This document shows, in pieces, positions 13,624-32,000 of a stretch of 32,000 nucleotides of DNA. The stretch covers positions 7,470,001 to 7,502,000 of the forward strand of contig NC_010628.1 in NCBI RefSeq assembly GCF_000020025.1. The letters are read 5' to 3'. Position 1 is the stretch's first letter, and every line of letters begins with the position of its first letter. The notes under the pieces were generated by a model. That model searched no databases and had not been told where the DNA came from. It saw only the letters and a list, made by a program, of their open reading frames with translations. A program made the position numbers and the translations under genes. The stretch is from Nostoc punctiforme PCC 73102 (GTDB taxonomy: Bacteria; Cyanobacteriota; Cyanobacteriia; Cyanobacteriales; Nostocaceae).

Positions 13624-14538
13624 ATGGGTTCTCAATACTTTGATATCAAACCAGTTGCAGGACGTATCGGTGCTGAAATTATTGGCGTTAATCTGAGTTC
13701 TAATCTTAGCGACGATATCATCAGTGATATTCGTAAGACTCTTGTCAAACACAAAGTGATCTTTTTCCGCGATCAGCAACAACTTGATGCTGATGGACAG
13801 GTTGCTTTCGCTCGTCGTTTTGGTGAAGTCACTACAGCCCACCCTACCGTACCATCGCTGCCAGAAAATCCTGAAGTCTTAGACCTGAATTATGGGCGCA
13901 CTACTTCCCGCGCCAATAGCTGGCATACAGATGTAACATTTGTAGACCGTCCTCCTCTTGGCTCTATTTTACGAGCGCTTGACATTCCGCCAACTGGAGG
14001 CGATACAATTTGGGCAAACTCCGTAACTGCATATCAAGATTTACCTATCCATCTGCGTAATCTTGCAGACCAACTTTGGGCAGTACATAGCAACAAATAC
14101 GATTATGCTACTGCATTTGACCTTCCTGAATATGCCAAGGCTTACCGAGCTGTCTTCACCTCGACTGTATACGAGACTCTGCACCCAGTTGTACGCGTCC
14201 ATCCAGAATCTGGGGAGCGTGGGCTATTCATCGGCGGATTTGTGCGCCAGTTCCGTGGCTTATCAACAACTGAATCAGATGATATTCTGCGGCTGTTGCA
14301 AGCATATATCACACGTCCTGAGAATACAGTTCGGTGGCGTTGGCAAGTTGGTGACGTAGCCTTTTGGGACAATCGGGCTACTCAACATTATGCGATCGCA
14401 GATTACGGCGACCAGCCCCGCCACGTTCAACGAGTCACAATTGTCGGCGACCTCCCCGTTGGTATCGATGGGAAACAAAGTGAGGCCATCAAAGGAGACG
14501 CTTCTGAGTACAACCGACGTGAGGCGGTGACTGCGTAA
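13624..14538 (+). CDS. tauD: TauD/TfdA-family Fe(II)/2-oxoglutarate-dependent (taurine-type) dioxygenase
   Basis: WHTDVTFVDRPPLGSILRALDIPPTGGDTIWAN (H-x-D facial-triad context) and the C-terminal WDNRATQHYA. The ATG at 13624 follows ggagataaaaatc. The listed TTG at 13579 adds 15 unlikely residues. Confidence 0.87.
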   Translation: MGSQYFDIKPVAGRIGAEIIGVNLSSNLSDDIISDIRKTLVKHKVIFFRDQQQLDADGQVAFARRFGEVTTAHPTVPSLPENPEVLDLNYGRTTSRANSWHTDVTFVDRPPLGSILRALDIPPTGGDTIWANSVTAYQDLPIHLRNLADQLWAVHSNKYDYATAFDLPEYAKAYRAVFTSTVYETLHPVVRVHPESGERGLFIGGFVRQFRGLSTTESDDILRLLQAYITRPENTVRWRWQVGDVAFWDNRATQHYAIADYGDQPRHVQRVTIVGDLPVGIDGKQSEAIKGDASEYNRREAVTA

Positions 14539-19997: not shown

Positions 19998-21209
19998 TTA
20001 ACCCAGTTTTCTGTTCCAATGATTCTTATAGATCGGATATCCTTCACCTGGGTTTTTAAGGCGTATACGATACAAGCTATTTCTTGCCGTGATGTACAAA
20101 GTTTTATAATCATTGTCTCCCCACGCTAGATTAGCTGGAACTTCTGGGACTTCAATAATACCTAGTAGATTGCCTGCGGGTGAGAAAACCCACACTCCTC
20201 CAGGTCCCGTACTGTAAACATTCCCTTTGATATCTACTTTCATTCCATCTGGAACTCCTTCCTTACCAGGATATTTTTGTTGGGCAAAAATATGTCCATT
20301 TTTCAAAAGTCCATTGGAATTAACATCAAAGACACGGATATGACCTGTTTCAGAATCATTGACATATAGTTTGGTTTCATCAGGAGAAAAGGCGATGCCA
20401 TTGGGACGTACAAAATCTTTAACTAATAGAGTTAATTTTCTATCCGATGTCAGACGATAAACACCATAAAAACCTAATTCTTCTTGTTGTGGTTTAATAC
20501 CATAGGGTGGATCTGTGAAGTAGATACTTCCATCTGATTTCACTACTAAATCATTTGGGCTATTAAGTCGTTTTCCTTGGTAATGGCTAACAAGTGTGAC
20601 TAATTTGCCATTTTCTTCTGTACGAGATACACGACGATTACCGTGTTCAGCAGTAACTAAACGCCCTTGTTGGTCAAAGGCATTGCCATTAGCATTACCA
20701 GAATGGCGACGGAAAATCTGCAATTTTCGATTAGGTTGCCATTTATAAATTGTATTGGCAGGAATATCACTAAAGAGTAGAAAACCATCTGGATGCCAAA
20801 GCGGTCCCTCTGTAAATTTGAAATTTTTAGCAATTTTTTCAACTTGAGCATTCTTCTCAAGAATGTTTTGCAAATTATCCTGTTTCTTATAAAACTTGTG
20901 TACAGGAACTTTTAATTCTGTAATAATTACGCCATAATTTGTTATCTTAGCTACTAATCCATTAGCATTAGTCAAGGTAAATAGCTGTACTGCTTGGCCT
21001 TTTTCAGTTTTACCCCATTCCTTAAAAGTTATATTTGTATTCTGCTGATGCGAATCTTGAATCTGAGTAATATTTGTATCTAAAAATACTATTTTACCTT
21101 TAGCATTTCCCCCTTGACAAGAATACAAAATACTCATGAAGATGATAGTTATTCCAGTTGTTATAGAAATTGCCGCTAATTTTAGATTTTTAATAAATAT
21201 AGGTGGCAT
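19998..21209 (-). CDS. SMP-30/gluconolactonase/LRE-family lactonase with a lipoprotein-like signal and a fused aldose-1-epimerase N-terminal fragment
   Basis: FTEGPLWHPDGFLLFSDIPANTIYKW, NSPNDLVV, PNGIAFSPDETKLYV and PDGMKVD are lactonase beta-propeller motifs. The N-terminus has a hydrophobic stretch ending ILYSC (lipobox-like). Residues ~62-102 match the mutarotase N-terminus. Confidence 0.84.
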   Translation of the reverse strand: MPPIFIKNLKLAAISITTGITIIFMSILYSCQGGNAKGKIVFLDTNITQIQDSHQQNTNITFKEWGKTEKGQAVQLFTLTNANGLVAKITNYGVIITELKVPVHKFYKKQDNLQNILEKNAQVEKIAKNFKFTEGPLWHPDGFLLFSDIPANTIYKWQPNRKLQIFRRHSGNANGNAFDQQGRLVTAEHGNRRVSRTEENGKLVTLVSHYQGKRLNSPNDLVVKSDGSIYFTDPPYGIKPQQEELGFYGVYRLTSDRKLTLLVKDFVRPNGIAFSPDETKLYVNDSETGHIRVFDVNSNGLLKNGHIFAQQKYPGKEGVPDGMKVDIKGNVYSTGPGGVWVFSPAGNLLGIIEVPEVPANLAWGDNDYKTLYITARNSLYRIRLKNPGEGYPIYKNHWNRKLG

Positions 21210-21237
21210 AAACTAAAAGTTATTTATAACTGAAATA

Positions 21238-22716
21238 ATGAAAAAATTATACCTTTTAATTCCTATCTGCATAGTTTTGCTTTTCAACTTAGCATTTTCT
21301 AATATTTCCTCAGCACAAATTATAGATCCCATCCCTGAGAAGATTGGAAAATCAAAGATTTCGGTAGGAATACAACAAATTTTGCAAATACCAGAAAGTG
21401 GTACAGGGCGAAGCAAAGAGAGAATTGCAAGATTAAATATGTTAGCCCATGCAGGTGATGGTAGCGGCAGGTTATTCGTCAATGATATGCGTGGCAAACT
21501 ATATGTAATTAATAATGGTAAAGCCTCAGTTTACATGGATTTAAAAAGATTAGTATGCTCAGGCTTTAGTTATGATACTTCTCAACAAGGTTTTTCTTAT
21601 TTTGCCTTCCATCCAGATTTTAAGCAAAATGGGATTTTTTATACTGTACACAGCGAAGAAAAAAATAACTCCTTTACTGATTTTCCTGTGAGGAAAAAAA
21701 TTATTGATAGTTCAGGTAATATCATCGAAAGTTCTCACCATGACGTAGTTCTAGAATGGAAAACTACTAATCCTGCTGCTAATACTTTTTCTGGAAATTT
21801 TCGAGAAATGCTGCGGATTGAACAGCCATATCCAGACCATAATGTCGGACAATTGGGCTTTAATCCTAATGCTAAACTTGGAGATTTCGATTATGGAATG
21901 TTATACATTGCTACAGCAGACGGAGGAAGTGACGGTTTTCCTGTCAGCAATACAGATCCTTTAGATAATGCACAAGACCTGAGTACACCTCTAGGAAAAA
22001 TTCTGCGTATAGATCCTTTTGGCAAGAACAGCGTTAACGGTAAGTACGGCATCCCTGAAGATAATCCTTTTGCTCACGATGACGACCCCAAAACTTTAGG
22101 AGAAATTTGGGCTTATGGGTTGCGTAATCCCCATCGTTTTAGTTGGGATACAAGTGGCGCAGGCAAGATGTTAATTGTTGATATCGGTCAAGCTTTGATT
22201 GAAGAAATAAATCTTGGGATCAAAGGTGCTAATTATGGATGGGGGAACCGTGAGGGAACATGGGTGATAGATGAAAAGAAGGAAGATGTTCTATTTTCCT
22301 TACCTAAAGATGATGCCAAGTATGGTTACACATATCCGGTTGCTCAATATGACCATGATTTACCCGCTGATGGACAGGGTTCTTATGCAGTTGCGATCGC
22401 AGGTGGTTATGTTTACAGAGGTAAAGCCATTCCTGAATTAGTAGGTCAGTATATTTTTGCTGACTTTGGCAACGATGGACGCTTTTTTCATGTACCTGTA
22501 GATGAACTTGTTAATGGTAAACAGGCAAAAATTAAAGAAATTAGGCTTTTTGATGGTAAAAAAGAAAGTTCTTTTTTAGAAATCATTGGTAGTAAACGTT
22601 CCGATCTCAGATTTGGGGTAGACCAAGAGGGGGAAATTTATGTAACCTCTAAGAGCGATGGCAAGGTGAGAAAATTTGTTCGTTCTCCAAATGCTAAATT
22701 TTATAAGAGTTTATAG
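21238..22716 (+). CDS. PQQ-dependent sugar (glucose/sorbosone) dehydrogenase family protein, secreted
   Basis: Signal peptide MKKLYLLIPICIVLLFNLAFSNISSAQ. Motifs HNVGQLGFNP, GLRNPHRFSWD and ANYGWGNREG are typical of soluble aldose dehydrogenases. Confidence 0.84.
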   Translation: MKKLYLLIPICIVLLFNLAFSNISSAQIIDPIPEKIGKSKISVGIQQILQIPESGTGRSKERIARLNMLAHAGDGSGRLFVNDMRGKLYVINNGKASVYMDLKRLVCSGFSYDTSQQGFSYFAFHPDFKQNGIFYTVHSEEKNNSFTDFPVRKKIIDSSGNIIESSHHDVVLEWKTTNPAANTFSGNFREMLRIEQPYPDHNVGQLGFNPNAKLGDFDYGMLYIATADGGSDGFPVSNTDPLDNAQDLSTPLGKILRIDPFGKNSVNGKYGIPEDNPFAHDDDPKTLGEIWAYGLRNPHRFSWDTSGAGKMLIVDIGQALIEEINLGIKGANYGWGNREGTWVIDEKKEDVLFSLPKDDAKYGYTYPVAQYDHDLPADGQGSYAVAIAGGYVYRGKAIPELVGQYIFADFGNDGRFFHVPVDELVNGKQAKIKEIRLFDGKKESSFLEIIGSKRSDLRFGVDQEGEIYVTSKSDGKVRKFVRSPNAKFYKSL

Positions 22717-24667: not shown

Positions 24668-24816
24668 GCATTAACAATGCAAGCCAATGCATTGTTAATG
24701 CGTGAGCTTACATTGTTAATGTGTTGGCTTGCATTGCTAATGCGTGAGCTTGAATTGTTAATGCATTGGCTTGCATTGTTAATGCGTCAGCTTGAATTGT
24801 TAATGCATTGGCTTGC
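24668..24816. repeat. 21-bp-phased tandem array (six units of ATTGTTAATG-N11) preceded by one inverted unit
   Basis: ATTG(T/C)TAATG starts at 24691, 24712, 24733, 24754, 24775 and 24796, exactly 21 bp apart. The units alternate ...GCGTGAGCTTGA / ...GCATTGGCTTGC, giving a 42-bp super-repeat x3. gcattaacaatgc (24668-24680) is the perfect reverse complement of gcattgttaatgc (24689-24701). Confidence 0.92.
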
Positions 24817-25227
24817 AGTTTTCATGCATTTCCCTGCATTAAAAACGTTATGCTTTTACGCAAAACTGTACTTAGAAGACTACTTTGCTCAAATAGAGAT
24901 TGTAATTCTTGAGTAAAAGAGCGATCGCAGAATAATATATCACTCTCAATAATTTTTAAGCGCTTTCGGCAGTTCTAAGGCTTCTCCAATCCTGGATAAC
25001 TCTACACACCAATAGCATAAATTCGGCTACCATCTCAATTAACTTAACAAGAAGCAAAATTTCCTTGTTAAAGGTAAGCAAACTACCGCTCCGGTTTTTC
25101 GCTGAGTTGAGCTATGCCTACGCAAAGCCGCATAATTTTGGCAGACGACAGGCGGCGTTATACATTAATAAGTGTATCTGCAATACCGGACTTGTTCTGG
25201 CTTAGTCTCAATAGCAAAGGTTTGGAG

Positions 25228-26759: not shown

Positions 26760-26940
26760 TGGGCAAAGGTTAAAGAGGAAGGTAAAATTCCATACCTTTA
26801 CCGTTTAACCCTTCCACCTTTTCCCCACTTCTGCAAGAAGTCTAATGAGTTGTAGTTGGAGATTTTGCGATCGCCTTGCAGAACTTATTGAAAAACCTGC
26901 TAGTCTTTTTAAAAGATTAGCAGGCATGGCTTATCATCAA

Positions 26941-26987
26941 TCGGAGCGGCGGGATTCGAACCCACGACCTCCACTACCCCAAAGTGG
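26941..26987 (-). tRNA. 3' fragment (anticodon arm to discriminator) of tRNA-Pro(GGG); putative att core, not a complete tRNA gene
   Basis: The minus strand reads CCACT-TTGGGGT-AGTGG (anticodon arm, anticodon GGG, G37), AGGTC (variable), GTGGG-TTCGAAT-CCCGC (T arm), CGCTCCG-A (acceptor 3' strand + discriminator). The expected 5' acceptor CGGAGCG and D-arm are absent; the upstream sequence is ...attagggcttatacg. Confidence 0.85.
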
Positions 26988-27025
26988 CGTATAAGCCCTA
27001 ATACATCAATGGTTTGAACAATTGC

Positions 27026-28255
27026 ATGGCTGAGTTATGCAAGAACTATGCAACTCAGTCTATGTACGAAGCTGGTAAATCATCCTCTAGAGTACCCAAG
27101 ATTAAGCCACGCAACAATAATGGTGGAATTATAATCCGGTTTCAATACCAAGGTAAGCAATATACATTATCTCCTGGTGGTAGACACGACGATAAATTAG
27201 CCATTGCTAATGCTGAAAGAGTAGCAAGCCAAATCAAAACTGACATTTTAGCTGGCTATTTCGATTACACGCTAGAAAAGTACCAGCCAAGAGTTAAACA
27301 AGCTGACAATGTTGTTTCAATCAATCAGCAAATAGTATTCAATTTAAAAGACCTGTGGGAACAGTACAAAGTAGCTAAACAGGCAAGATTAGCTGAAACT
27401 ACTAAAAAGTCAATTTGGCGTGATGTCGATAGAATGCTAGGGAAGCTAATGGCAAATGATTTACTACCTGAGAATGCTTGTTTATTAGTAGGAAGATTAC
27501 TTGGCTTTTATAGTGCTAGTACACTTGAGAGGTTGTTAATTGAGATAGAAGCTTGTAGTAATTGGGCATTTGAAAATCACTTAACCCATACTCACATTTG
27601 GCGTAGATTAAGAAAGCAGTTACCAGAAAGACCTAAAAGTGAGAGAAGCAAAAAAGCATATTCTAGAAAAGAAGTTGATTATATAATCCAAGCTTTTGGA
27701 GGTGATTGGTACTGTAATTTAAATTCGGCATTTAAAGATAGCTACTATGCTGATTTCATAGAATTTCTATACCTCACAGGCTGTAGACCAGAAGACGCAA
27801 TAGCTTTAACTTGGGATTGCGTGAAAGATAATGTTATTGTCTTTGATAAAGCTTACTCTAAAGGCATTCTCAAGTCTACAAAAAATAACAAAGCAAGGCT
27901 GTTTCCGATTACTCCACAGATTAGACAATTGCTTGACAGAAGGGCAATTTATGTATCTACTCTGCTGAATAAGTTAGTGTTCCCCAGTCAAAAAGGTAAT
28001 CGTATAAACCTAAAGGATTTTACCCAAAGGTACACCAAGCGAATTATTGAAAACTTGGTAAGTGAAGGTAAAGTCAAACAATACTTACCTACTTACAACC
28101 TGAGAAATACAAGCATCACTCATTACCTAAGACAAGGTGTAGACATAGCTACAGTAGCAGCATTGATGGAAACATCAGAAGAGATGATTAACCAGCATTA
28201 CTGGAGTCCAGATGAGGATATCATCAACAACAATGTTCAATTACCAGAAATTTAA
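27026..28255 (+). CDS. int: tyrosine-type site-specific integrase with an N-terminal arm-type DNA-binding domain
   Basis: N-terminus KIKPRNNNGGIIIRFQYQGKQYTLSPGG...ILAGYFDYTLEKY (arm-binding/DUF3596-like). Catalytic-domain landmarks are TGCRPEDAIALTW (Arg), LRNTSITHYLRQG (His/Arg) and MINQHYW (Tyr). The start could be TTG 27014, ATG 27026 or ATG 27062. Confidence 0.9.
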   Translation: MAELCKNYATQSMYEAGKSSSRVPKIKPRNNNGGIIIRFQYQGKQYTLSPGGRHDDKLAIANAERVASQIKTDILAGYFDYTLEKYQPRVKQADNVVSINQQIVFNLKDLWEQYKVAKQARLAETTKKSIWRDVDRMLGKLMANDLLPENACLLVGRLLGFYSASTLERLLIEIEACSNWAFENHLTHTHIWRRLRKQLPERPKSERSKKAYSRKEVDYIIQAFGGDWYCNLNSAFKDSYYADFIEFLYLTGCRPEDAIALTWDCVKDNVIVFDKAYSKGILKSTKNNKARLFPITPQIRQLLDRRAIYVSTLLNKLVFPSQKGNRINLKDFTQRYTKRIIENLVSEGKVKQYLPTYNLRNTSITHYLRQGVDIATVAALMETSEEMINQHYWSPDEDIINNNVQLPEI

Positions 28256-28296
28256 AGCTTTAGTTATCGTTTCTATTAAAAATTAATTCAATACTC

Positions 28297-28330
28297 AAAA
28301 TCAGGTAATCATCAATTCCCTGATTTTTTT
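28297..28330 (+). terminator. rho-independent terminator after int
   Basis: aaaatcagg (28297-28305) pairs with cctgatttt (28319-28327), and the T-run extends to 28330. Confidence 0.72.
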
Positions 28331-28683
28331 ATATATCTGGTTATCACTACTCATTAAATTGGTATGAAATTATTTCAACTTGTGAGTGTTTAACTAAACC
28401 TTATAAATCAAATCGCCAAAACTTAAAACCTGATTACTTTAGCCACTTTTACGTTAGAAACTATATTTTTTACCTGCAAAGTATTAAAGTTCACTTATAT
28501 CAATTTTGATACAGGTGAAATTTTATTTAAATCAAGATTTCCTCATCATCTCGGATAATGATTACTTCTCTAGGTATAGAATCATCTTCTATTCCTAACC
28601 TAGCTAATCTTTCTAGATGGAGTAAATACCATAAATAGAAGGGTTAATTAAAATGTTGACTTTACAAGGGTTTGACTTTTTAT

Positions 28684-29123
28684 GTGCAGGTGTGGTGGGT
28701 AGTGTGCAGGTATACCTGCTTGACTGTAACGTATGCTGCATAAGGATTCTGGCTTTAGTGCAGGTGTGCAGGTGTGTGCAGGTATAACCTACTCAGCTAG
28801 AATACTTGCTGTGTATACGTTCTAGGCTTTTGTGCAGGTGTGCAGGTGTATTTCACCAAACTTTATATATTTGATGTTGTGTTATGCCCTAGCCAAATAA
28901 TTGGTAACTTATTAAGTTTCTTATGTACTTTTATAAAATATACCTTCACACCTGCACACACTACTGTAAAAAACCTTGAAACTACCGTTATATATACATT
29001 TCAGCTTGTGCAGGTGTCTGTGCAGGTGTATGATATAGTAATATAGTGAAAACCTTGAAACTACCGTTATATATACATTTCAGCTTGTGCAGGTGTCTAC
29101 CACTTTTTTAGTAATACCTGCAC
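28684..29123. promoter_or_regulatory. putative iteron-type replication origin
   Basis: GTGCAGGT direct copies at 28684, 28704, 28758, 28766, 28776, 28832, 28840, 29008, 29020 and 29087. Inverted copies (ACCTGCAC) are at 28950 and 29116. A palindrome GCAGGTATACCTGC lies at 28706-28719. An AT-rich ORF-free spacer at about 28851-28949 separates the two clusters. The region ends 9 nt from the primase-helicase stop. Confidence 0.62.
28970..29098. repeat. two perfect 50-bp direct repeats, 79 bp apart, inside the iteron region
   Basis: aaaaccttgaaactaccgttatatatacatttcagcttgtgcaggtgtct occurs at 28970-29019 and again at 29049-29098. Confidence 0.93.
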
Positions 29124-29131
29124 AGTTGTTA

Positions 29132-31417
29132 TTACCCTTCCAGAAAAGTAACTTTCATGTCAGTAGGAGTTAGTGTTTTAGGAGGCTTCTTACCTGTAAT
29201 AGTTTCTATATTGTTATGGAACCATAACATTTGTTGTGTACCACCTACTCTCACTCTTTTGTTATAAAACTTCAGTTTTTTCAGAGCAGATGTTATTTTA
29301 AGTTTTGATTTTTCAACATCTACTTTATCCCCAAATATTGCTGTAATTGCATCTATTAGATGAAAGCCTTCAGTTGCTAAAGTATCATTCCATTGTGTAC
29401 CACCTTGACCTACACGAAGATTATTTATCCATAGCACTAATTGACTTTCTGGTAAACTCTCTTCAGTATAGTTTTCATTGTGATACTTTTGTGCTAACTC
29501 CTCTGTTTTATTTAGCCACCATTTTTCTTTATTGCGATAAGCTGCTATAGCCTCAGCCCATATAAAATCTCTATTCTTTGCAACCCAATCTCTATCTAGT
29601 TCTTTGGTGATTTCACATACCCAATATCTTCTATTACCTGTAGTATCCTTCAGGATATCTTTATGGTTTGTAGTGCCGAACAGAACAAATCTTCTGAGTA
29701 TGTTTATTGATGACTGTGTGTAATACTTTCTCATTACATCTTTAGGTTTGGTAATAAAAGTTTTAATTTCCGCTTGACTTTTCTTACTAGAAAATCTTTC
29801 CCATTCGCCTATCTCACCGCACCATACACTTTTACAAGCAGCTACTATGTCATTGTCTCCAGTTTCATTGGGTAACGTAGCATAATAATCCTTGCCGTAT
29901 AAATCCTCAAAAAATTTGCTTTTACCTAATCCTTGTTCTCCATAGAATAAAATTACGTTGTCAAGATAACATCCTGGGTCGTATGCTCTAGCTACTGATG
30001 CTATTAAAAACCTTAGTACGTAAACACGTTCGATTGGTTCTCTTAATCCTAAAATCTCACAGAACTGTTCAATATATCCTGTGACTTTCATGCCGTACTG
30101 TTCTATTATTGAGTCACAGTAAGAAGTAACAGCATTGTAATGATAGTTAGTGTTGTTGACTACTATGAAATCTAATACATCCCTCAAGTCTTCAGTGCGT
30201 ATATCAATACCGTTTTCTATACCTAGTGGTATTCTTAATGTATTAGGTGTAACATTTTCACTGTTATATATAAAAGTTTCTTTATACACATCCCATTGTA
30301 AATTACCTAAGTCAGCTTCTTTAGTAACGATATCTACTAATGCTTCCATTTTCCCACCTTCATTTTTTACGCTAGATTTGTAAGTACTTTTATCTTTGCC
30401 AGCTTTTATACTTTTTTTGATTGTGGTACTTATTTCCTTTTCAGGTAGTCCGGTTTCACTAGCAGCATCGAATAGGCTTTCAAAAGCATCATCTTCATCT
30501 ATTACGCCTTCCCTTATTGCTCCACCAGCAATAAAACTGGCTTCATTTAATGTGTTGTTGCGACTACCTTCTGTTGCTTTACTTACTTTGTCTATCTGTT
30601 TTTGCAATATTGAAGGTATAGTTTTTTCAGATTCTTGAGCATAAACTTTGGCAGGTATCAAGTCTATTACTTCATTCTGATTTCTGTACCTAACACTAGG
30701 ATTACAATACGCAAGCTTAACTAGTTGTGGTTCTCCTTTCCTATGAAAAAATCCAGGTAGACGCATTACACGAGGTAAATCATGTACCTTCTTATCTGAT
30801 TCGTAGTGGCTAATAATTGACTGTTGGCTAGATTTGAACTGGTTTAGTTTTTCGTTATCTTCCAATAACCAGTAAATATGTCCTTTTTGTATCCCGTTGA
30901 CATTGCTAGTATTTACTATGACTGAAGGTTCTAAGTGACAGTGTTCAGGTAATCCATTCTTGTCACAATCAGCGTATAATGCACGAACATAGGTAATATC
31001 TTCAGTTTTTCGTGTATTGCCTGCTGTCTGATTGATAGTAACAAATATGCCAGCATCTTTATTATTTAATTTAACTAGTTCATTTTTACACTCATCAAAA
31101 GCACCATAGAGTTGTCTAGTTAGACTTTCGTCTTTACGTTTCTCATTATCATCAAAAGTTTGGAATAAAAATTTATATTCCTCAAAGTCTGTGAATAAAT
31201 CATTCCCACATAATGCACTTAAAAACTTTTCAGTATCTTCAAAGTTAAATGATGAGTCAGTACCTATATTTTCTTGATAAAATTCTGTAAATTCGTTATA
31301 ATTAGTAACAGTTGAATTGTTCATTGTTTTCATTGTATTGTCATTTTTTGAGTAGTTCATTTGTTTGAGTTCGCCTGTGTAAGTAAAGGGGTCATTTTCT
31401 CTAGGAAATAGTTTCAT
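29132..31417 (-). CDS. replicase: AEP-type primase-polymerase-like N-domain + PriCT-1-like linker + VirE/D5-like P-loop NTPase
   Basis: N-domain: AGIFVTINQTAGNTRKTEDITYVRALYADCD...HIYWLL...RLPGFFHRKG. Middle: EGSRNNTLNEASFIAGGAIREG (PriCT-like G-x-RN-x-L). C-domain: Walker A FYGEQGLGKSKF and Walker-B-like VLFGTTN. RBS ggagaaaaaacaaa lies before the ATG. Confidence 0.88.
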   Translation of the reverse strand: MKLFPRENDPFTYTGELKQMNYSKNDNTMKTMNNSTVTNYNEFTEFYQENIGTDSSFNFEDTEKFLSALCGNDLFTDFEEYKFLFQTFDDNEKRKDESLTRQLYGAFDECKNELVKLNNKDAGIFVTINQTAGNTRKTEDITYVRALYADCDKNGLPEHCHLEPSVIVNTSNVNGIQKGHIYWLLEDNEKLNQFKSSQQSIISHYESDKKVHDLPRVMRLPGFFHRKGEPQLVKLAYCNPSVRYRNQNEVIDLIPAKVYAQESEKTIPSILQKQIDKVSKATEGSRNNTLNEASFIAGGAIREGVIDEDDAFESLFDAASETGLPEKEISTTIKKSIKAGKDKSTYKSSVKNEGGKMEALVDIVTKEADLGNLQWDVYKETFIYNSENVTPNTLRIPLGIENGIDIRTEDLRDVLDFIVVNNTNYHYNAVTSYCDSIIEQYGMKVTGYIEQFCEILGLREPIERVYVLRFLIASVARAYDPGCYLDNVILFYGEQGLGKSKFFEDLYGKDYYATLPNETGDNDIVAACKSVWCGEIGEWERFSSKKSQAEIKTFITKPKDVMRKYYTQSSINILRRFVLFGTTNHKDILKDTTGNRRYWVCEITKELDRDWVAKNRDFIWAEAIAAYRNKEKWWLNKTEELAQKYHNENYTEESLPESQLVLWINNLRVGQGGTQWNDTLATEGFHLIDAITAIFGDKVDVEKSKLKITSALKKLKFYNKRVRVGGTQQMLWFHNNIETITGKKPPKTLTPTDMKVTFLEG

Positions 31418-31728
31418 TTTGTTTTTTCTCCGTTATTAGTAGTCGATTATTGCCTTTAGTTGTGGTTAGCTGAAGGCTATTTCAATTCGTATAAAATCTG
31501 GTGTAAGGAATGTCATTCGCTCGATTAGAAAACCGTTCGTGCTTGTTCTGAGACGCTGTAATAATATTAAGCACAGCGTTCTTTTTATGAAACCTTGTCC
31601 AGTCTTCTAGCACTTGGTTTAGCTTATGTAATATTCCGGGACAATTCGTTTAGTTTTAGTTATCATAAGTCTTTATAGTGTATTTATTCTGATAGGGGAT
31701 AATCAGTACTTTATCCCCAGTAATTACA

Positions 31729-31926
31729 TTAGCTAGTTACCCTACTAGCAGCTAATCTGTCTCTTAGGTCGTTACGCTGTTCATCGGTTAAATTTTTACG
31801 TTTCCTTTTCAAGTCAGTAGCCTTCCTAAACTCTGAAATAGGTACATTACTGAGTGTCAAATTTCTTTCACCCTCAAATAATTTCAGTTGAGTATATTCA
31901 GGGAATTGCTTTAACCAACTATCCAC
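31729..31926 (-). CDS. small basic hypothetical protein (65 aa) upstream of the replicase
   Basis: GTG start. The C-terminal half is Lys/Arg-rich (KRKRKNLTDEQRNDLRDRLAASR). It is followed by the hairpin ggggataa-tcagtact-ttatcccc at 31694-31717. No HTH recognised, so the coding status is uncertain. Confidence 0.4.
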   Translation of the reverse strand: MDSWLKQFPEYTQLKLFEGERNLTLSNVPISEFRKATDLKRKRKNLTDEQRNDLRDRLAASRVTS

Positions 31927-32000
31927 TGTCCATCGATGATTCGACCAACCAGAGACTAAATTTAGGTCATAATCCCAGGTAACATAAGTTTATGTGGGGT

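Follow-up and report, generated by a model that had tools for sequence, protein, structure and literature searches.

A probable integrative and self-replicating element in a tRNA-Pro(GGG) gene of Nostoc punctiforme PCC 73102

The AT-rich end of a 32,000-nt stretch of DNA from Nostoc punctiforme PCC 73102 (contig NC_010628.1, positions 7,470,001 to 7,502,000 of the forward strand; hereafter the window, numbered from its first letter) is, in our assessment, very probably the left half of a 10.4-kb integrative, self-replicating element inserted in a tRNA-Pro(GGG) gene. Work on cell differentiation and plant symbiosis uses this organism as a model, and to our knowledge the mobile elements of filamentous cyanobacteria are poorly described beyond insertion sequences, plasmids and heterocyst excision elements. 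An initial annotation, made from the letters of the window alone, had proposed a mobile element here, with a tyrosine integrase, an iteron origin and a primase-helicase next to a tRNA fragment. The window proteins correspond to ACC84353-ACC84357 of this strain. The analysis below defines at the base level a small element whose integration and replication core is self-contained, and which comes from a Nostoc family that moves cargo, a type I restriction-modification system included, between tRNA sites.

Boundaries of the element and its tRNA target

The composition of the window switches at a fragment of tRNA-Pro(GGG), to the right of which the GC content drops from about 0.43 to 0.33-0.35 (0.425 over 1-26917, 0.345 over 26990-32000). 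Both the switch and the fragment had been recognized before, the latter with a length of 47 nt, which needs a small correction. The 3' 47 nt of tRNA-Pro(GGG), in reverse complement, equal window 26941-26987, and a 63-nt probe combining 16 nt of flank with this tRNA part has an exact match in 47 Nostoc genomes. The intact tRNA-Pro(GGG) genes of these 47 genomes agree with the window for 2 nt more, up to 26989 (...GTGGCG), and diverge beyond; as shared identity reaches 26989, the displaced fragment is 49 nt long. The intact gene continues as CGCGCTACCAAGCTGCGCTACGCCCCGG in all 47 genomes, of which the window shares the first two bases only, and ARAGORN detected no intact tRNA within the window. 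The highly iterated palindrome HIP1 (GCGATCGC) is present in 17 copies in 1-26874 and in none from there to the window end. This absence, likewise part of the initial annotation, is marginal for the 5 kb in view (about 3.2 copies expected from the host density, P about 0.04), becomes clear over the whole 10.4-kb element (about 6.6 expected, P about 0.001), and recurs together with low GC content in two relatives, so that three elements totaling 36 kb hold no HIP1 at all.

The part of the element to the right of the window is supplied by a public read-assembly contig of 10,309 bp (L001), which is 100% identical to window 26960-32000 except for a 79-bp stretch of the putative origin that is single instead of double. 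On the integrase side the contig stops 30 nt into the tRNA fragment; at its other end it starts with GCTCCGA, the 3' end of the tRNA, followed by a near-copy of the tRNA terminator hairpin. Since both ends lie 30 nt, equal to the k-1 of the assembler, into the repeat, the contig was broken at both repeat copies, and the second att copy implied by the idea of a mobile element is thus present at its end. The perfect direct repeat spans 72 nt (window 26918-26989), made up of the 3' part of the tRNA and the beginning of the tRNA terminator, and reaches 106 nt when imperfect matches in the other arm of the hairpin and the flank are included; the copies differ in the hairpin loop alone, and the window copy is 95% identical to the one at the far end. 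Between the 72-nt direct repeats the element is 10.4 kb long, extending from window 26990 to about 37317, with its right repeat copy predicted at the equivalent of 37318-37389.

A homologous element of 13.2 kb occupies the same site in Nostoc sp. FACHB-133 (L065), where the full layout can be read: rpoZ, a 202-aa gene, a DUF1818 gene, an intact tRNA-Pro(GGG) at 1126-1199, cargo and regulatory genes, a primase (67% identical), iterons, an integrase (98% identical), an exact second copy of the 47-nt tRNA part at 14349-14395, an M50 peptidase gene and a spore-photoproduct-lyase (SPL) gene. The intact tRNA-Pro that a displaced fragment leads one to expect is therefore found at the far end of this relative. 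Empty sites, with the order M50, tRNA-Pro, DUF1818 and rpoZ, were recovered from five Nostoc genomes that share 91-96% identity with the window over the M50/SPL region; in LEGE 12450 the 202-aa gene stands between DUF1818 and rpoZ. The alignment of attL, attR and attB is that of a simple recombination product. In Nostoc sp. P9820, about 490 bp resembling the tRNA-proximal end of the element (L016 4850-5344, 85% identical) adjoin an intact tRNA-Pro and are followed by TPR and metallophosphatase genes; they could be the scar of a lost element or belong to a member with other cargo, the block being short (8 kb). The host flank of FACHB-133 past the SPL gene (L065 18474-22304) carries genes of a pPIWI_RE module, a prokaryotic Argonaute-related defence system that is absent from the matching part of the window.

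The integrase, correctly identified at the outset, begins with an arm-type DNA-binding domain, and its alignment with XerD shows that the catalytic Arg, Lys, Arg and Tyr are kept, with Tyr and Glu at the two His positions. As it is full length and shares the 98% identity noted above with the integrase of the bounded FACHB-133 element, it is not decayed. We propose that the element entered through tyrosine-integrase recombination between attP and the 3' part of tRNA-Pro(GGG). Because attP carries copies of the tRNA 3' part and of the terminator, integration makes both whole again on the right and leaves the host 3' fragment beside the integrase.

The replication protein PriRep and the predicted iteron origin

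The gene convergent with the integrase encodes a 761-aa protein that the initial annotation described as a primase-polymerase/NTPase, in agreement with its Pfam matches to VapE-like (1.6e-59) and DUF5906 domains and one to RepB_primase slightly below the cut-off. This PriRep-type protein can be divided into: 1) a primase domain of the archaeo-eukaryotic primase (AEP)/RepB'-like type (about residues 60-250), with the conserved AEP motifs FQTFDD, DxD, GHxYW and RVMRLPG; 2) a helical linker; 3) a VapE/superfamily 3 (SF3) helicase (about 450-650), which retains Walker A and Walker B along with the GTTN and GNRR motifs of VapE/SF3 helicases; and 4) a C-terminal winged helix (about 678-734), predicted as helix-helix-helix-strand-strand in an AlphaFold model with a pLDDT of 82.7. 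In sequence searches of solved structures its sole relative is 7pds (4.9e-18), the complex of DNA with Rep from the Staphylococcus aureus pathogenicity island (SaPI) SaPI1, and the same entry ranks first in a Foldseek search with the model (9e-16). Lower Foldseek ranks are taken by poxvirus and African swine fever virus primase-helicases, RSF1010 RepB' (3h20), cyanophage S-2L PrimPol (6zp9) and NrS-1. Neither this protein nor the integrase bears the marks of decay, both being full length with intact catalytic motifs.

In SaPIs, Rep binds iterons through its C-terminal winged helix, and the origin comprises 6-12 iterons directly downstream of rep, with an AT-rich region near the centre and opposed iterons on either side (PMC9371898). 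The DNA beyond the stop codon of PriRep is arranged in a comparable manner. Twelve copies of the octamer GTGCAGGT fall within 28684-29123, against 0.78 expected across the whole window: seven in forward orientation at 28684-28847, one inverted at 28950 after a centre (28848-28949) of 74% A+T, three forward at 29008-29094, and one inverted at 29116 that lies nearest the primase, 8 nt from its stop codon. A 50-nt perfect repeat also lies within this stretch (28970-29019 and 29049-29098). The 0.88-kb region between integrase and primase had been described as ORF-free and packed with repeats; the latter holds, whereas mechanical open reading frames (ORFs) of 42-68 aa do occur in it, none of them supported as a gene.

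The behaviour of this array among related elements is informative. Array and layout are alike in L063, L065 (FACHB-133) and L068. The first of these belongs to a 12.9-kb relative (L063/L064) lodged in tRNA-Arg(CCG), where the flanking 48-nt repeats are perfect and stand 12,935 bp from each other. This relative has a different integrase (478 aa, with a weak Phage_integrase match) and a primase 74% identical to PriRep, and it retains the same ACCTGCAC/GTGCAGGT array despite the exchange of integrase. In L066, whose primase is 41% identical, the array consists instead of nine copies of ACAGGACA, all at most 570 bp from the primase stop codon, with 0.63 expected. The iterons thus follow the primase when the integrase is swapped and change when the primase diverges, which is the strongest sequence-level support for an origin. 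We predict that the GTGCAGGT array is the replication origin bound by PriRep, a reading already offered by the initial annotation and now strengthened by the conservation of the array, the different array at the divergent primase and the predicted winged helix with its match to SaPI1 Rep. We also considered that the octamers might be arm sites of the integrase, and rejected this as they lie 1.7-2.1 kb from the core and are kept in a relative with an unrelated integrase.

On this basis we suggest that, after excision, the circle would be copied by its own PriRep. The C-terminal winged helix would bind the GTGCAGGT iterons that start just past its own stop codon, self-loading of the SF3 helicase at the AT-rich centre would follow, with priming by the AEP domain, by analogy with the mechanism of the SaPI Rep proteins.

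Two further features of this region deserve mention. A 79-bp stretch consisting of the 50-nt repeat and a spacer is doubled in the window (28970-29127) and single in L001 and the relatives, giving the window extra iterons on the primase side; the difference from L001 is probably an assembly collapse at the 50-nt repeat, the alternative being a real duplication in the finished genome. Further, the non-coding sequence at 28471-28775 is 97% identical to that of the tRNA-Arg element, against 80% for the adjoining primase gene, a difference that suggests either mosaic recombination or a site under constraint. Folding of the spacer part as RNA (28471-28683) gave modest z-scores of -2.2 and -2.8, and promoter and terminator scans performed no better than on shuffled sequence.

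The Nostoc family, its cargo and the state of the N. punctiforme copy

Besides the elements of N. punctiforme and FACHB-133 and the tRNA-Arg relative, the family includes L068, L071/72 and L073/74. Its core consists of a divergent 137-aa gene, genes for a 60-aa ribbon-helix-helix protein and for 63-aa and 93-aa proteins, the primase and the iterons, with 93-aa and 141-178-aa genes as additional core genes of the intact members. The family therefore is one that shares a regulation and replication core and in which integrases (for tRNA-Pro or tRNA-Arg) and cargo are swapped. The cargo of the tRNA-Arg relative is a complete type I restriction-modification system (hsdMSR). Very large unannotated genes adjoin the core at L073 1682-8154 and L068 6511-9756; they encode proteins of 900 and 1182 aa and one of 1082+ aa with weak Toprim and origin-binding-protein-like matches, which suggests alternative replication or cargo modules. 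At about 400 nt from the tRNA-proximal end, all elements, that in tRNA-Arg with its different integrase and cargo among them, carry an 80-90-nt non-coding block that hardly varies (L001 405-490, about window 36,860-36,940; L064 368-448; L065 about 1600-1690; also L016) and has no Rfam match. In the tRNA-Arg element it lies 100 nt upstream of hsdM, and it may be a cargo promoter, a leader or a cis site.

In N. punctiforme the gene pair just beyond the window comprises the 137-aa protein and, divergent from it, the 60-aa ribbon-helix-helix protein that heads the primase operon, an arrangement conserved in the family. The 137-aa protein was found in Nostoc only, in five clusters. The ribbon-helix-helix protein has a faint NikA-like match (E 0.068), and neither member of the pair has homology to Stl, Str or AlpA in Pfam or PHROGs. 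From its position, the pair is likely to constitute the on/off switch of the element. The ORFs of the right half measure 116, 108, 52, 74, 103 and 213/216 aa. Cargo and regulators have no significant match in Pfam, PHROGs or PADLOC, the best being one of the 60-aa ribbon-helix-helix protein to a PHROGs transcriptional regulator (E 0.0011). Nor do they resemble any of 50,697 phage genomes in DNA or protein, or match Rfam. The suggestion that defence or hijacking genes might sit to the right of 32000 is accordingly not borne out for this copy, in whose cargo none is recognizable with these resources. The same databases yield no recognizable structural, packaging, lysis, relaxase, conjugation or known defence gene anywhere in the element, which extends to its full length the earlier statement that structural genes are missing from the part in view.

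Several observations weigh against the reading as an integrative, self-replicating element. The right junction in N. punctiforme is reconstructed rather than read, as L001 ends within the repeat; when the DUF1818 neighbour was used to look for the right host flank among read assemblies of N. punctiforme, other Nostoc samples were all that came back. Genes for an excisionase, AlpA, a repressor, packaging or transfer could not be recognized in the element, the AlphaFold model of the 137-aa protein (pLDDT 57) is unusable, and the GTGCAGGT iterons could in principle serve another DNA-binding protein. Excision, replication, switch and transfer are all inferred. Moreover, the copy has suffered damage, with three genes known from relatives broken or deleted: 1) What had been noted as a small basic ORF (31729-31926) turned out to be the C-terminal 65 codons of a broken, conserved 93-codon gene with a nonsense TAA at codon 7 (window 31990-31992). 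2) By DNA alignment about 0.5 kb is lost between this gene and the primase, which leaves a tail (31482-31613) of the 141-178-aa gene that in the relatives lies directly upstream of the primase. 3) A 380-aa recombinase gene of the ResT/TelK type is reduced to its last 54 codons. 4) One cargo gene is inverted relative to FACHB-133. The N. punctiforme copy is thus partly eroded, and its autonomy may no longer be full.

The intact version of the third gene is seen at L068 273-1415, beside the 137-aa gene, and encodes a protein with a telomere-resolvase ResT/TelK catalytic domain (Pfam 1.2e-17); its 54-codon remnants lie at L001 4299-4463 in N. punctiforme and L065 7894-8055 in FACHB-133. This protein could serve as an alternative integrase, resolve dimers or act as a true enzyme of hairpin telomeres.

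The four lesions would also suit a dead remnant, that is, a decayed prophage or fixed island that no longer moves. We find this reading rather doubtful, given that no damage is seen in integrase, PriRep, iterons or either repeat copy and that closely related genomes have empty sites. Its prophage version can be rejected: the compact gene set, which lacks structural genes, recurs in several genomes with the same layout and exact ends, and so is not what a decaying phage left behind.

As to how an integrative, self-replicating element would pass between cells, a helper phage is our leading guess. The corresponding interpretation is a phage satellite of the kind of the phage-inducible chromosomal islands (PICIs) or the phage-inducible chromosomal minimalist islands (PICMIs), which a repressor of its own would keep silent until induction by a helper cyanophage, and which would then replicate from its iterons and enter helper capsids with no packaging genes of its own. 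The size of 10-13 kb, the PICI-like layout of integrase, putative switch, PriRep and downstream iterons with SaPI Rep as nearest solved relative, and the defence cargo of one relative are in its favour, as is the fact that the nearest phage relatives of the integrase are cyanophage integrases (25-29% identity). The lack of capsid-remodelling genes has a precedent in PICMIs (bioRxiv 10.1101/2023.07.18.549517). We nevertheless hold it to be unlikely, as terS, capsid, cos/pac-related and interference genes and AlpA are absent in every member examined, IMG/VR viral contigs and JGI metagenomes contain no close relatives, the cargo and regulators are unlike those phage genomes surveyed above, and there is no known helper.

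Alternatively, the element could be an integrated plasmid, in which PriRep and iterons maintain a free circle, the integrase parks it in the chromosome and spread depends on mobilization, transformation or vesicles. VapE-type proteins probably replicate small cyanobacterial plasmids, examples being those of 5.8 kb in Cyanobacterium aponinum and several in Nostoc, the N-terminal domain of PriRep resembles the RSF1010 RepB' primase, and the faint NikA-like match of the ribbon-helix-helix protein would fit. We judge this improbable, since relaxase, partition and toxin-antitoxin genes are absent, the members that lie in long contigs are all chromosomal and bounded by tRNA repeats, and matches to plasmids are limited to the helicase part at 23-32% identity.

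A bolder proposal, which we put forward as an improbable speculation, is that the Nostoc family defined by PriRep, the GTGCAGGT origin and the switch pair is a helper-phage-dependent satellite lineage of heterocystous cyanobacteria, with PICMI-like packaging that needs no packaging gene of its own, and that it ferries defence systems, type I restriction-modification among them, from strain to strain. If true, no earlier phage satellite would be on record from filamentous cyanobacteria within the literature searched. For the integrative, self-replicating element as such, the 0.44-kb predicted origin together with PriRep is a candidate compact replicon for Nostoc genetics, and the integrase with its 72-nt att is a candidate tool for site-specific integration.

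Table 1. Features at the right end of the window (window coordinates)
Feature	Position	Strand	Remarks
attL	26884..26989	.	Terminator hairpin of tRNA-Pro, 16-nt spacer and tRNA 3' part; attL/attR/attB aligned
Displaced tRNA-Pro(GGG) 3' part, 49 nt	26941..26989	-	Starts immediately ahead of the anticodon stem and ends at the discriminator base; 5' half of gene absent
Tyrosine integrase, 409 aa, ACC84353.1	27026..28255	+	Coordinates are the best call; Pfam Phage_integrase 5.9e-15 and Arm-DNA-bind_2; faces inward at left end
Non-coding spacer, integrase stop to iterons	28256..28683	.	From 28471 on, 97% identical to tRNA-Arg element
Predicted replication origin	28684..29123	.	12 GTGCAGGT iterons around AT-rich centre
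PriRep-type replication protein, 761 aa, ACC84354.1 / WP_012412295.1	29132..31417	-	Convergent with integrase; Pfam and PHROGs matches
Gene remnant, last ~47 codons of 141-178-aa gene	31482..31613	-	tblastn, 85% identity to C-terminus of the 178-aa protein of L068
Conserved 93-codon gene	31729..32000	-	Start at about 32010, outside the window; 90% identity over 93 codons to the intact L064 gene

Two observations concern the rest of the window. A second stretch of low GC content (0.33-0.37) at 20000-22000 covers the ORF at 19998-21209 (-) and the start of that at 21238-22716 (+), and HIP1 is also missing around it, between 19856 and 22393. A 21/42-nt tandem repeat with about 6 copies of the 21-nt unit (24688-24840) lies within the ORF at 24677-24916 (+), which encodes a leucine-rich repetitive 79-aa product, is situated between the spore-photoproduct-lyase and M50 peptidase genes, and is called as a gene in other assemblies too.

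Comparison with known integrative elements

Our literature search found no paper on the N. punctiforme element or a Nostoc equivalent. The element was compared with the described classes of small integrative elements. Several of these classes fit poorly by gene content. Capsid, tail, terminase and lysis genes of a prophage are lacking in the 10.3 kb of the contig and in the relatives. Of the P4-like set (psu/delta/sid, alpha primase and cos), family matches exist for the primase-helicase alone. Integrative and conjugative or mobilizable elements, including those of actinomycetes (AICEs), would be expected to encode a relaxase, type IV secretion or an FtsK-like Tra domain, none of which was found with Pfam in the ORFs scanned or in the gene records of the relatives. 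The AICE pSAM2 does resemble the Nostoc element in its 10-17-kb size class, its integration in a tRNA gene, its own replication gene and a filamentous bacterium as host (PMC2440964); AICEs differ in carrying an FtsK-like Tra protein for conjugation.

The PICMIs of Vibrionaceae share with the Nostoc element a reduced gene set without capsid-remodelling genes, a core of integrase, regulator and primase, and defence cargo (bioRxiv 10.1101/2023.07.18.549517). Unlike them, with their insertion at the end of fis and their int/alpA/primase core, the Nostoc element targets tRNA-Pro or, in the relative, tRNA-Arg, has no AlpA that we could find, and its phage dependence is hypothetical.

A closer likeness is seen to the SaPIs and other PICIs. 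The points of agreement are: 1) an AEP primase, an SF3 helicase and a C-terminal winged helix, fused or adjacent (SaPI1 Rep1, SaPI5 PriRep5; PDB 7pds; PMC9371898); 2) an origin of short iterons right after this gene, on both sides of an AT-rich centre and including opposed iterons, so that the element has, by sequence and structure, its own primase/replication initiator with an iteron origin directly downstream; and 3) an integrated island of 10-15 kb with a site-specific tyrosine integrase and flanking att repeats, and without structural genes. Against this, the identity between the PriRep proteins is just 18-19%, the Nostoc iterons are 8-mers where those of SaPI are 5-6-mers, and the Nostoc integrase sits on the downstream side of the origin, pointing towards the primase, whereas that of SaPI stands beside the repressor. 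The Nostoc element also lacks homologues of stl/str, terS, cpm and ppi, no ORF of the whole element or of its relatives giving a Pfam, PHROGs or PADLOC match to terS, cpm, ppi or the major capsid protein (MCP) gene, and its host is a heterocystous cyanobacterium.

By gene order, the element conforms to the published organizational definition of tycheposons, described from Prochlorococcus and other marine bacteria, and like them it has a tRNA-targeting tyrosine recombinase and is flanked by full and partial tRNA copies (bioRxiv 10.1101/2020.12.28.424599). Both kinds of element are modular with variable cargo, and in both the type of integrase sets the tRNA site. The hallmark genes of tycheposons include pri and hel_VirE (bioRxiv 10.1101/2020.12.28.424599); the Nostoc element shares with them just the general VirE/VapE family (PF05272). 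Its host is freshwater or terrestrial and filamentous, and in no Nostoc member was terS or MCP seen. The element is best filed as a small, tRNA-integrating, self-replicating island of the known PICI/tycheposon-like kind, and its integration and predicted replication resemble those of PICI/SaPI. It adds no new principle and extends this style of element to the heterocystous cyanobacteria.

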